Source: an uncultured Candidatus Saccharibacteria bacterium (lineage in GTDB: Bacteria > Patescibacteriota > Minisyncoccia > UBA6257 > 1-14-0-10-40-38). From it: DNA of 64,000 nt. The notes below the pieces were generated by a model. The model had not been told where the DNA came from. It saw nothing but the letters and a program-made list of their open reading frames with translations, and made no database searches. Of this stretch, positions 59,523 to 62,500 are shown one piece after another. Location: the NCBI GenBank assembly GCA_964434715.1, contig CAYSWC010000003.1:6652-70651 (forward strand). The letters run 5' to 3'. The position numbers and the translations under genes were made by a program. Positions within the stretch are counted from its first letter, which is position 1. Each line of letters opens with the position of its first letter.

Positions 59523-62500
59523 TTATAAACAGATGACTCCTGCGACCTTATCTCCCGGATTCAAAGTCATAACTTTTACTCCTTGGGTGGCGCGGCCGGC
59601 CAAACGCACTTGAGCCAGCTTGGTTCTGATAATCTGTCCTTTAGCCGAGAGGGCAATCATTTCTTCTTCTTGGTCCACCACATGGGCCGCGACCAGCATG
59701 CCGGTCTTGGAAGTAATTTTGGCGGTTTTAATGCCTGATCCGCCCCGCCGCTGGAGCCGATACTGGGCAATCGGCGTTTGCTTGCCAAAGCCATTGGCCA
59801 TCACCACTAATAATCTCTGATCTTTAATCTTTAATCTTTGATCTTTGATATTTGATATTTTAATGATGTCCATCGAGCTTACCTCGTCATTTTTTTTGAG
59901 TCTTATTGCCTTGACTCCAGCCGCCGCCCGGCCCATGGCCCGAACTTGCGATTCTTTAAATCTGATGGACTGACCGTTGTGAGTGGTGATGATTACCTCA
60001 TCACTGCCCGATGACATCTTAACCCAGCGCAAGAGATCGCCCTTCTTGAGCCGAATGGCAATAATGCCGGTGCGTCGGACATTGCCGAAATCTCCAAGCC
60101 CGGTTTTTTTAATCATACCATTTTTGGTGAGCATGACTAAATAACGCCCACTCGATATATCGATATTTCGGGATTTTGAGTCAGCGCTTTGTCTCCCTTC
60201 GGGAGATCTCCCGTAGGGAGACACTTTGTCCCCTTCGGGATAGCTCACAATAGCGTTGACTTTTTCCGTTTGCGGAACCTCCAAAAAGTTATGCACCGGT
60301 TTGCCCTTGGAGGTGCGCGAGGCCGAGGGAATCTCCCAGACTTTGGTCTGGAAAACCCGGCCGCGATCAGTAAAGAATAAGATATTGTCGTGGGTATTGG
60401 CCGAAATCAAATGTGTGAGAAAATCTTCTTCAGCCACCTCGGAACCAATCAGTCCCTTGCCGCCGCGCTTCTGAATCCGAAAAGAGCCGGGCGGCAGTCG
60501 TTTGATGTAACCGCTCTCTGAAAAAGTAATCACGGTTTCTTCCTGCGGGATTAAATCTTCTTCCCGGAATTCTTTAAGCCCGTGAGCGATTACTTTAGTG
60601 CGCCGCTCATCGTTATATTTATTTTTAATTTCGGTAAGTTCGTCTTTGATGACCCCTAAAATCTTCTCACGGCTTTTAAGCAAAATTTCGAGTGCGGCAA
60701 TTAGTTTCTTTTTCTCTTTTAATTCATCTTCTATTTTTTGCCGCTCCAAAGCCGCCAAAGTTTGGAGCCGCATTTCCAAAATGGCATTGGCCTGAATTTC
60801 GGTAAGCTTAAAGTTTTTAATTAAATTCTTCTGGGCTTCATCGCGGTCAGCTGATTTTTTAATGGTTGAAATGATTTTATCAATGACAGCGAGCGCCTTG
60901 GAAAGACCTTCCAAAATGTGAGCCCGCTCCCGCGCCCGTTTTAAATCAAATTCGGTCCGGCGCCGTACCACTATTTCCCGGTGTTCTACGTAGGCCTGAA
61001 GTATGTCTTTAAGCGAGAGCACTTGCGGCTGAAGGCCTTGAACTAAAGCAATCATATTTAAGTGAAAATCTTTCTGAAGATCAGTATGGTTGTAGAGCTG
61101 GTTTAAAACTTTCTGGGGCGCGGCCGTGCTCTTAAGCTCAATCACAATACGCAAGCCCTCTTTGTCAGATTCGTCGCGTACATCGTGGATGCCTTCAATT
61201 TTTTTATCCTGCACCAGTTCGGCGATCTTTATGATAAGCTCGGCTTTGTTGACCTGATAGGGAATTTCGGTAATCACAATATCGTAGGCTTCTTTACTGC
61301 CGCGCCGTTCTTGGATTTCAGCCACTGCCCGGGTGGTAATCGGGCCCCGGCCGGAAGTATAGGCCTCGGCAATAGCTTTTTTATCGTAGATTATGCCGCC
61401 GGTTGGAAAATCCGGTCCTTGGATAAACCCTAAAAGATCAGCTGCTCCGGCTTTGGGATGATCAATAAGATGAAGGGTGGCATCAATAACTTCGCCCAAG
61501 TTATGGGGCGGAATAGATGTTGCCATACCAACGGCAATGCCCATGCCGCCGTTAAGTAAAAGATTGGGAAGCTTAGCCGGAAGAACTTTGGGTTCTTGAC
61601 GCGTGCCGTCATAGTTCGGCTGCCAGTCAACCGTTTCTTTTTCAATATCAAATAATAGTTCTTCGGAAATTTTTGAGAGCCGGGCTTCAGTATATCTCTG
61701 TGCGGCAGCTCCGTCGCCATCAACACTGCCCCAATTTCCTTGACCTTGAATCAAGGGATAGCGCAAAGAAAAATCTTGAGCCATGCGCACTAAAGTATCA
61801 TAGATAGCCATGTCGCCATGAGGATGGTATTTGCCCATGCAATTGTGCACGATCATGCCATTGGCTACGAATTCGTGATCACCCCCAACTTCTAGATCAT
61901 AAGTTTCTTCTGGAGGATGGTCTTCTATTGAGGATATTTTTATAAAACGCAAATTATTTTTAATTACCGAATCTATGAAATTGAAGAAAGGAGAATTAAT
62001 TTTCTCTAATTTTCTTTTTATCCCCCATTCAATTATTTGACTGGTTCGGAGCGGCTTTTCATCGAGATCACTGGAATACCTTATCTTAGCGCCGCCAGGA
62101 TATTTGATACCCATCCTGAATTTGTTTCCTTCATGATCTTCATACCACCCCCCACTAAGATGTGCCTCACTTAATTCTTTAAATAAGACCCCGCTGGCAT
62201 AGGGGATAACATCATAAGTATTAAATCCTTTCCGCTCATGGCTGCCGATTTTCGCAAATTTTAACCTACTGACTTTACTGTTTTTATAGTCATCGAACAA
62301 ATTTAATTTTGCAGCCAACTTTAAGGCATTTTCTCCTTGGATATCTACCGCATAAGATAAGTGCTGATTTATAATTTTTTTACCTAAAAGAAATCGCTCC
62401 TTCTTATAAAGATTATTATTTTTGTATTTATTGCTAAATATTCCTTGGGAGAAAAGCAATAACATCAGCTGATCTACTAGTTTTTCAGAGATGGAGACGT

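Follow-up and report, generated by a model that had tools for sequence, protein, structure and literature searches.

Intragenic copies of repetitive extragenic palindromes (REPs) and of REP dimers, among them GTAG- and CGTC-tagged forms, the Rickettsia palindromic elements RPE-4 and RPE-6 and repeats of Opitutus, have been described within uvrA/B, polA and recBCD (Di Nocera et al. 2013, PMC3733652). The stretch of DNA considered here, called the window throughout, is 64,000 nt of contig CAYSWC010000003.1 (assembly GCA_964434715.1, positions 6,652 to 70,651) from an uncultured Candidatus Saccharibacteria bacterium. Inside its gyrA gene lies a 30-nt element composed of two adjacent hairpins. This pair is probably a copy of a dispersed, REP/RPE-like miniature palindromic insertion element. 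Copies with a common consensus occur within and between genes, in the window and far beyond it.

The gyrA hairpin pair and its host loops

The gyrA element occupies positions 60192-60221 and reads TCTCCC-TTC-GGGAGA:TCTCCC-GTA-GGGAGA, where the colon marks the junction of the two hairpins. It belongs to class B of the two sequence classes defined below. With its TG...CA ends it forms a 34-nt palindrome at 60190-60223 (TGTCTCCCTTCGGGAGA followed by TCTCCCGTAGGGAGACA), whose 17-nt arms are 94% complementary, with one mismatch. Each arm is also a hairpin of its own, with a 6-bp stem and a 3-nt loop. The sense strand, TCT CCC TAC GGG AGA TCT CCC GAA GGG AGA, is read in phase 0 and contains no stop.

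Chance expectations for the window come from 60 block-wise shuffles that preserve dinucleotides. Hairpin pairs of generic shape are no commoner than expected (7 observed, 7.2 expected), whereas pairs in which the same stem is repeated occur twice, at 60192-60221 and 14872-14901, against 0.05 expected. GC-rich hairpins with 3-4-nt loops are also in excess (58 against 25.5 +/- 5.1). Only 4 of the 180 GATC sites in the window have palindromic arms of at least 5 nt, and all of them lie inside elements picked out by an earlier sequence-only reading of this DNA. The region of the gyrA pair folds more stably than its shuffled counterparts (z = -4.7 as DNA and -5.1 as RNA), with an mRNA folding energy of -43.3 kcal/mol over 106 nt.

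The host open reading frame (ORF) lies on the minus strand at 59523-63563 and is recognized as gyrA by a search for relatives and by a PDB search (C-terminal domain against GyrA, E = 4e-68). Its likely true start is at 63464 on that strand (MANIEKRE...), and it contains a 473-residue intein at 61842-63260 (CFVKNTL...IVHN:C). The top GyrA matches come from metagenome-assembled genomes (MAGs) of Harrisonbacteria, Wolfebacteria and Paceibacteria, at identities of no more than 74%; the host is a member of the Patescibacteria of Parcubacteria type. The element sits in a lineage-specific extra loop of about 25 residues in the C-terminal domain (60150-60233, minus strand). This loop is built from the class-B element, the palindromes AGCGCT and TCGATATATCGA, and the word AAATCCCGAAAT. 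Small palindromes near the pair lie at 60153-60162 (CGATATATCG) and 60229-60240 (TCCCCTTCGGGA). In the PDB alignment, the GyrA proteins of E. coli and M. tuberculosis have no counterpart of query residues ~140-166 of this domain, which correspond to window positions ~60150-60233.

A second insert lies in the equivalent loop of a later blade, where a tandem 7-nt array occupies 59813-59860 (minus strand; ATCTTTG on the plus strand, AAAGATY in sense). Tandem Repeats Finder assigns it a period of 7, 6.9 copies and 90% matches. The loop that carries it is ~6-10 residues longer than in the closest relative, P0001 (74% identity), and in the PDB GyrAs. The doublet, the adjacent palindromes and the word repeat had been described correctly by the sequence-only reading, and its view of the gyrA segments as insertions is borne out by the comparison with PDB GyrAs and 60 relatives. 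Both inserts are missing in P0001, and most of the 60 Patescibacteria relatives have short loops. In seven relatives (P0016, P0026, P0014, P0056, P0008, P0009 and P0035) one or both of the equivalent loops are extended by unrelated inserts rich in repeats, which argues that both are permissive positions. No hairpin-pair peptide was found among the 120 nearest GyrA homologues. In an AlphaFold model of the C-terminal domain made from 51 sequences, with a mean predicted local distance difference test (pLDDT) score of 83.7 and a predicted template modelling (pTM) score of 0.80, the beta-pinwheel blades are confident, residues 142-166 fall below a pLDDT of 50 and the second insert scores ~77-79. 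The model predicts disorder for the element-bearing loop and leaves the pinwheel fold intact.

Replication slippage accounts best for the heptamer array, which would be a separate product and not part of the hairpin element. It consists of short head-to-tail units, and its length varies between relatives, as in slippage microsatellites; its frame would be preserved by selection. Cyanobacterial short tandemly repeated repetitive (STRR) arrays are heptanucleotide tandem repeats. The gyrA array shares the heptamer tandem arrangement with them, and the window holds many intergenic arrays; its word differs, and its in-frame position in an ORF is unusual. Intergenic 7-nt arrays are present at 231-261, 8258-8297, 39844-39877, 59389-59419 and 59492-59522, with the words CTAGTGG, AACGAAT, TCCTAAT, AAATTCG and TTTCGGA, and one of them lies directly 3' of the gyrA stop codon.

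The repeat-built GyrA loop inserts of relatives P0026 and P0016 (L002:5850-5975 and 6255-6335; L003:1095-1175 and 1460-1545) consist of 10-11-nt words (ACGCGGAyTnA, AGTCCGCnTA), in forward and then inverted order. A related word, AACGCGGATA, occurs in intergenic DNA of the window at 14748-14766. Words of this type look like a second repeat class that invades ORFs in these genomes.

A sequence family inside and between genes

The sequence-only reading had proposed that the doublet recurs as a family defined by shape rather than by sequence. The recurrence is real: intergenic DNA, a tRNA-like remnant and essential ORFs all carry hairpin pairs, both within the window and far outside it. A generic shape family was rejected in favour of a sequence family: pairs of that shape are no more frequent than in shuffled DNA, and the copies have a clear consensus. 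The family frame is TCnnCC-nnn-GGnnGA:TCnnCC-nnn-GGnnGA. Across ~0.96 Mb of fetched loci plus the window, one perfect 6-3-6:6-3-6 pair lies outside the TC..CC/GG..GA frame, against 84 inside it.

Species-representative genomes, one per species, were scanned with TCNNCCNNNGGNNGATCNNCCNNNGGNNGA, a pattern with 16 fixed bases and no requirement for complementarity. At least 120 loci were found. Among the matches listed, to which the copy counts below also refer, 82 of 127 are perfect double hairpins, where chance would give about 1 in 256. The same pattern gave 66 matches in IMG/VR viral contigs, 14 of them perfect hairpin pairs; many of the 52 imperfect ones are 15-nt coding tandem repeats, which shows the background. 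The consensus of 93 unique copies is tTt:TC(C/A)GCC-nRA-GGC(G/T)GA:TCCGCC-Tyn-GGCGGA:aAa, in which the outer colons set off the flanks. Loop positions 9 and 22 are complementary (A9/T22) in 85 of the 93, and the middle loop positions vary freely. A metagenome scan with a second pattern (TCTCCCNNNGGGAGATCNCCCNNNGGGNGA) gave at least 119 perfect copies of class B. In these the first loop is TNC and the second GNA, which by symmetry holds on both strands, and the flanks are TTG...CAA. Several of them encode the peptide of the gyrA element in other proteins. Contigs with class-B hits include those from Hainich (ERZ12926xx) and Ga0209515, Ga0209541 and Ga0209542.

The family therefore comprises two classes of one sequence family: class A, with CCGCC stems (14872 and the partial copy at 14045 in the window), and class B, with CTCCC stems (60192 and the decayed copies at 48124 and 48638). 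The differing stems noticed earlier are these two classes together with decayed copies. The common anatomy is a 30-nt core of two adjacent, mutually inverted hairpins with 6-bp stems, 3-nt loops and a GA:TC junction, usually flanked by TT(G/T) on the 5' side and (C/A)AA on the 3' side. The stems differ between the two hairpins in 120 of 219 perfect copies, and each hairpin is still perfect. Pairing is thus conserved within each hairpin and not as an overall double-stranded palindrome. The TTG 5' flank on the plus strand makes the gyrA copy canonical for class B, and its 30-mer is found identical at a non-coding site in locus L091. The idea that the gyrA pair is a local duplication of native YPEGDK codons was dropped as the main explanation because identical 30-mers are found elsewhere; the resemblance itself extends over 16 of 17 nt.

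Open frames of at least 200 amino acids hold 39 of the 82 class-A-scan copies and 56 of the 119 class-B copies. Their reading phases (0:1:2) are 28:3:8 and 34:9:13, respectively; the pooled distribution, 62:12:21, strongly favours phase 0 (chi-square p = 2e-10), which implies that copies in ORFs are translated and filtered by selection. The phase-0 decapeptide is SAxGGSAxGG or SPxGRSPxGR. Hosts include valyl-tRNA synthetase (ValRS), PheT (two copies), class II ribonucleotide reductase, PolA (two), aspartyl-tRNA synthetase (AspRS), Mfd (two), UvrB and DnaG.

Filled and empty sites can be compared directly in two proteins. The DnaG proteins of L082 and L004, which are 65% identical, each contain one class-A element at a different site, with an exact 10-codon gap in the other. 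The DNA junctions are AAG:TCCGCCGGAGGCGGATCCTCCTCTGGAGGA:AAA against AAC AAA:AAG, and TTG:TCCGCCGAAGGCGGATCCGCCTCGGGCGGA:AAA against CAG:AAA. RecG of L255 and L191 reads GTHAII:SPYGRSP(E/D)GR:QKGVRF where RecG of the window reads GTHALI:QKGVTF, and the DNA is ATT:CAG in the window against ATT:(30 nt):CAA in the other two. No target duplication is visible on comparing filled and empty DnaG and RecG sites, and the T-rich 5' and A-rich 3' flanks are part of the target. The element is shown by these pairs to be a discrete indel unit of exactly 10 codons (30 nt). DnaG, RecG and GyrA all carry an in-frame palindromic insertion that has no counterpart in orthologues.

By record title, about half of the class-A-scan copies come from Patescibacteria lineages. 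Others are labelled Kiritimatiellae, Lentisphaerae, Omnitrophota, Ignavibacteria, Elusimicrobia, Binatia, Zixibacteria, Bacteroidota and further groups; these are submitter labels and not fully reliable. Several MAGs have copies on more than one contig. In L099, a 1.63-Mb contig, the element lies inside a C-terminal sorting domain that by appearance resembles those of type IX secretion systems (T9SS). Sorting domains of T9SS type are not known as a feature of Patescibacteria. No copy of the class-A consensus was found in the GenBank phage and PLSDB plasmid collections, and none of the class-B consensus in the phage collection.

In some genomes the hairpin pairs have extended flanks in common that are specific to that genome, as in L187 (4 copies in 13.5 kb), L183/L188 and L019/L006; examples around the element [E] are CCCC[E]CACCTC... 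and ATAGGAATTT[E]CAATCC.... This suggests that the 30-nt core there forms part of longer repeats that have been amplified locally. An association with tRNA genes was rejected, as ARAGORN revealed no systematic link across 60 element-bearing loci. An association with flanking 7-nt arrays, striking by eye, was also rejected: in a periodicity test it amounts to 9.8% against 4.0% at a lax threshold and disappears at stricter ones. A literature search by concept and by sequence string returned no description of the 30-nt element; most subscription journals lay outside that search, and a prior description is possible.

The window itself has about 6 copies in 64 kb, decayed ones included. The canonical class-A copy, TCCGCC-GAA-GGCGGA:TCCGCC-TCT-GGCGGA, lies at 14872-14901 between tRNA-Arg and tRNA-Pro, and its 30-mer is found identical in L059:6865, L063 and L100. 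At 14045-14066, in intergenic DNA between divergent ORFs, a partial class-A copy lacks the left outer arm (GGCGGGA:TCCCGCC-GAA-GGCGG). A degenerate class-B copy with TG...CAA flanks at 48124-48186 reads TCACCC-TAC-GAGTGA:TCTCTC(37 nt)GGAGA; its second loop is expanded and contains the mini-hairpins TGCC-TAC-GGCA and TCCC-GAA-GGGA. Stem variants of the type TCACCC/GGGTGA are also seen among the fetched class-A-scan and class-B copies. The other degenerate class-B copy, GTCATCCCTTCGAGAGA:TCTGCCGAAGGCATGAC at 48638-48671, adjoins tRNA-Val, and its arms are complementary at 14 of 17 positions by hand count. The other sites named by the sequence-only reading comprise one canonical, one partial and two degenerate copies and one doubtful case. 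The latter, at 15150-15212, is a variant pair with 7-bp stems (TCCCGAC-GTAAA-GTCGGGA:TCCCGAC, a 29-nt AT-rich loop, GTCGGGA). Its core, GTCGGGATCCCGAC, is absent from all 299 loci compared, and its membership of the family is uncertain.

Expanded hairpin loops are seen at 48124-48186 (37 nt with two mini-hairpins), at 15150-15212 (29 AT-rich nt) and at 14911-15018 (~95 nt that include the tRNA-Pro gene). The loops of the hairpins seem to act as insertion sites in their own right, or the 6-bp arms to bracket cargo. Around the decayed class-B hairpin cluster, at 48033-48260, the 10-11-nt word AATCCTGCAA(A) forms arrays in both orientations. These include an 18-bp perfect inverted repeat at 48035-48074, in non-coding DNA upstream of tRNA-Val.

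On the minus strand at 14843-15060 lies a tRNA-like gene with two apparent interruptions. The 5' portion, which runs downward from ~15053 (CGGGCCGTAGTGTAATGGTAGCAGGAGTCC), is similar to the corresponding portion of the adjacent tRNA-Pro. A T arm, one strand of an anticodon stem and an acceptor strand complementary to CGGGCCG are recognizable in the 3' portion, from 14926 down to 14843. The variable-loop position of this remnant is taken by the class-A element, and an intact tRNA-Pro gene (14927-14999), bracketed by TCCGCC...GGCGGA, stands between the two tRNA-like parts. Neither ARAGORN nor Rfam called the locus. A pseudogene and a split or interrupted tRNA are both conceivable.

Proposed origin and spread of the element

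As a probable copy of a dispersed insertion element, the gyrA pair would owe its position to a hairpin- or cruciform-dependent process at the DNA level. Candidate routes are a trans-acting enzyme of HUH/Y1 type and template switching between copies. HUH/Y1 enzymes leave no duplication, which makes them the obvious choice. A DNA-level process is supported by the strand symmetry of the element and by the C-G-closed triloop of GNA or RNA type (R and N being degenerate bases) that each strand offers. C-GNA-G DNA mini-hairpins, studied by Hirao and Yoshizawa, are reportedly exceptionally stable. Inside genes, copies would survive in that 30 nt preserves the frame, most copies are stop-free and the phase-0 peptide would form a flexible, hydrophilic loop; the element may be tolerated because its length is a multiple of three and it lies in surface loops. 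The gyrA copy would have landed in a blade-connecting loop whose length varies across relatives. It would be translated there as part of a disordered surface loop and is probably close to neutral.

Several observations weigh against this explanation. A Pfam scan of 50 window ORFs revealed no Y1/HUH transposase, and tblastn with approximate IS200 TnpA and RAYT queries (RAYT, REP-associated tyrosine transposase) gave nothing significant in 2.2 Mb of loci, a weak negative given such queries. The sense-strand sequence TATCCCGAAGGGGACAAAG, directly 5' of the gyrA element, resembles the 3' half of the element plus its flank, TCTCCCGAAGGGAGACAAAG. Simple cut-and-paste insertion does not predict this resemblance, which could reflect microhomology, an older decayed copy or local conversion. 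About 11 further extra loop residues are not accounted for by the element. The pairs that show presence and absence are all between orthologues ~65% identical, so that precise deletion is indistinguishable from insertion, and no recent transposition or within-population polymorphism was seen. Finally, the stems are the same across phyla, which is unusual for neutral selfish DNA and may mean function.

The alternative that survives best, though we consider it improbable, builds on this last point and holds that the element is a selected motif: a cruciform or single-stranded DNA (ssDNA) site recognized by a topoisomerase or by a protein of replication, repair or recombination, or else an RNA hairpin pair for processing or stability that acts in either orientation. 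The conservation of stems and loop classes across phyla would fit such a role. So would the loop asymmetry, which is identical on both strands with one GNA/RNA-type triloop hairpin each, and hairpins that stay perfect even when the stems differ. The REPs of E. coli, moreover, are gyrase targets (PMC3733652). The scatter of the copies is harder to reconcile with selection for a function, as no positional regularity relative to genes or tRNAs was found, density is low (~6 copies in 64 kb), and decay is tolerated at 48124, 48638 and 14045. The closest GyrA relative has no element, no such peptide occurs in the 120 nearest GyrA homologues, and Rfam gave no family match at element sites (gathering threshold over the whole window, E<=1 over 14700-15300). 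On both strands a T-run precedes the element and an A-run follows it, the reverse of an intrinsic terminator, and many copies lie inside ORFs; a terminator was rejected on these grounds.

Less probable still is an origin in place, by slippage and template switching at quasi-palindromes in hypervariable gyrA loops, with no mobile family involved. Several features of the locus favour this idea. The same two loops bear unrelated repeat-rich inserts in P0016, P0026, P0009 and P0035, the 7-nt array is of the kind that slippage classically produces, a TCCC-GAA/TAC-GGG motif has four copies nearby, a 36-37-nt direct repeat is present, and the gyrA flank resembles the element's own 3' half. A local process should, however, yield arbitrary stems, and pairs outside the family frame are essentially absent. 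The identical 30-mer sits at the unrelated L091 site, the perfect class-B copies elsewhere (at least 119) have the same stems, loop classes and flanks, and DnaG and RecG differ by the presence or absence of exactly 30 nt. Origin in place is largely refuted for the hairpin pair; it is still the best account of the heptamer array and perhaps of the rest of the loop.

We give very little credence to the notion that the insert is removed from the mRNA or bypassed by the ribosome, which would leave a GyrA protein without it. Bypass has precedents in T4 gene 60 and in mitochondrial 'byp' elements, and the mRNA hairpin at the gyrA pair is strong (-43.3 kcal/mol, z = -5.1). The gyrA element is nevertheless in frame and stop-free, the phase-0 bias makes sense only if copies are translated, no take-off/landing codon pair and no stop codon at the 5' edge were seen, and the loop appears structurally permissive in the model. 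An assembly or library artefact is the least likely of all: the data are all from metagenome assemblies and palindromes can arise as amplification chimeras, but the copies lie mid-contig, vary in their loops and flanks, and stem from numerous studies and assemblers, with chromosome-scale records among them (OY969569.1, a closed Patescibacteria chromosome of 995 kb, and the 1.63-Mb contig CAWHAG010000001.1); they also show frame preservation and phase bias in conserved genes.

If the gyrA pair is a copy of a dispersed insertion element, a bolder and distinctly tentative proposal is that this element might be the smallest mobile DNA of bacteria. It would be the minimal substrate of a hypothetical hairpin-specific mobilisation system common to Patescibacteria, several other uncultivated phyla and their phages. 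Its form would be harmless to translation, being a multiple of three in length, mostly stop-free and, as a palindrome, the source of the same Gly/Ser/Pro-rich decapeptide in either orientation, and the surface loops of essential replication, repair and translation proteins might be routinely remodelled by it. If the reading as a dispersed family holds, one very short family would explain many odd 10-residue Gly/Ser/Ala/Pro-rich inserts in essential proteins of the candidate phyla radiation and other uncultivated lineages. The pattern could be used to mask or flag such inserts in annotation, alignment and phylogenomics, and as a marker of insertion events for strain tracking. Palindromic repeats may also spread across phyla without an adjacent transposase, and copy-number profiles over ~185,000 species genomes, set against gene content, could reveal the mobilising enzyme. 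For GyrA, the pinwheel's blade-connecting loops would be seen to tolerate ~25 extra disordered residues.

Neighbouring features and known systems

The remainder of the window contains further repeats and mobile-looking DNA. A glycogen-synthase-like ORF at 44166-45833 has an extra loop at 44815-44883 (KSEIRNPEKGRGPLGTLRPKSET) that is missing in the paralogue at 41211-42773. The loop consists of AAATCCG-type 7-nt words around GGGAC-GTG-GTCCC-CTC-GGGAC, and its word AAATCCCGAAA is shared with the gyrA insert (60166-60178). Hairpins with 8-bp stems at 10590-10608 (TGCCGCGC-TCC-GCGCGGCA) and 12970-12988 (TGCCGCGC-GGA-GCGCGGCA) stand in inverted orientation, separated by 2.4 kb; a trypsin-like protease ORF (11076-12530) lies between them, and the first is inside a GIY-YIG ORF (10267-10683). 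Duplicate tRNA-Phe(GAA) genes at 19152 and 31545 delimit a low-GC island (0.38-0.41) at ~19150-31700, probably a mobile element that has integrated there. It includes a large serine recombinase (20101-21717) that abuts tRNA-His, a LOOT RNA match (25574-25701, 65.7 bits) and the methylase (25713-27254) and Res (27251-29437) genes of a Type III restriction-modification pair. A second intein with a LAGLIDADG domain is found in the ribonucleotide reductase gene (15231-18917), and within 46895-47862 a free-standing LAGLIDADG ORF (47380-47862) overlaps the end of a UPF0102/YraN-like nuclease gene.

Several known classes of repeat were considered for the 30-nt element. RPE-1 is typically ~100 bp long or more. 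Membership of the RPE family was rejected on account of the 30-nt core, the different consensus and the missing CGTC tag. DNA uptake sequences, which occur about once per kb and arise by point mutation, were rejected on account of the ~6 copies in 64 kb and the presence or absence of exact 30-nt blocks. Mitochondrial double-hairpin elements of Allomyces consist of two adjacent GC-rich hairpins, are scattered and are inferred to be mobile. They resemble the element, as do the hairpin repeats of sponge mitochondria (PMC2800124), in being tiny GC-rich hairpin pairs located between genes and in variable gene parts. Unlike it, they are organellar, have other sequences and variable lengths, and show no 30-nt unit or phase preference. 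The in-frame miniature inverted-repeat transposable elements (MITEs) of Coxiella (PMC5896051) and the coding palindromes of Nematomorpha mitochondria (PMC6649704) are likewise palindromic DNA translated in proteins; they differ in measuring tens to hundreds of bp and in being confined to one lineage each. A MITE requires terminal inverted repeats and a target-site duplication, and was rejected since the DnaG and RecG sites have no duplication. TIGR (tandem interspaced guide RNA) arrays are tandem 36-nt units with box C/D-like repeats beside a tas gene (PMC12045711). This identity was rejected too, as the copies are solitary, dispersed and often inside conserved ORFs, with no array at the element and no window ORF annotation suggestive of Tas.

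REPINs, which are mobilised by RAYTs, are closer. Like them, the element has two inverted palindromic units and is non-autonomous, ssDNA hairpins are the presumed substrate, and no target duplication is expected for HUH/Y1 enzymes (Bertels & Rainey 2011, PMC3116915). REPINs differ in being longer, with a spacer, extragenic, vertically inherited in a lineage and linked to a single-copy RAYT (PMC3116915). No RAYT was detected by Pfam in the 50 window ORFs or by tblastn in the 2.2 Mb of loci; these loci cover parts of genomes, and a RAYT would be a single-copy gene. Where REPs and REPINs are extragenic and specific to a lineage, about half of the copies of this element (39 of 82 and 56 of 119) lie in ORFs, and they come from several phyla, to go by record titles and the gene content of L099.

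The closest match is to REP dimers and RPEs (PMC3733652). These too are short GC-rich stem-loops that mostly form inverted (head-to-head) dimers and are scattered over intergenic DNA and, in frame, within genes; their inserts encode extra loop residues that are judged to be tolerated, and replication and repair genes are notable hosts. The inverted-dimer arrangement is evident in the complementary loop classes of the element, nRA with Tyn (A9/T22 in 85 of 93) and TNC with GNA. Unlike REPs, the 30-nt element has no GTAG or CGTC tag; it ends in TC...GA, and the only GTAG is one that spans the loop in some class-B copies. Its units measure 15 nt, with a 6-bp stem and a 3-nt loop, whereas the published elements have stems of 5-13 or 8-9 bp and loops of 2-20 or 4-5 nt (PMC3733652). 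They follow each other without a spacer, and the same sequence occurs in several phyla, where REPs are specific to a species or genus. The element appears to be of the intragenic REP/RPE-like kind, set apart by its minimal size, its spread across phyla and its frequency in essential genes.

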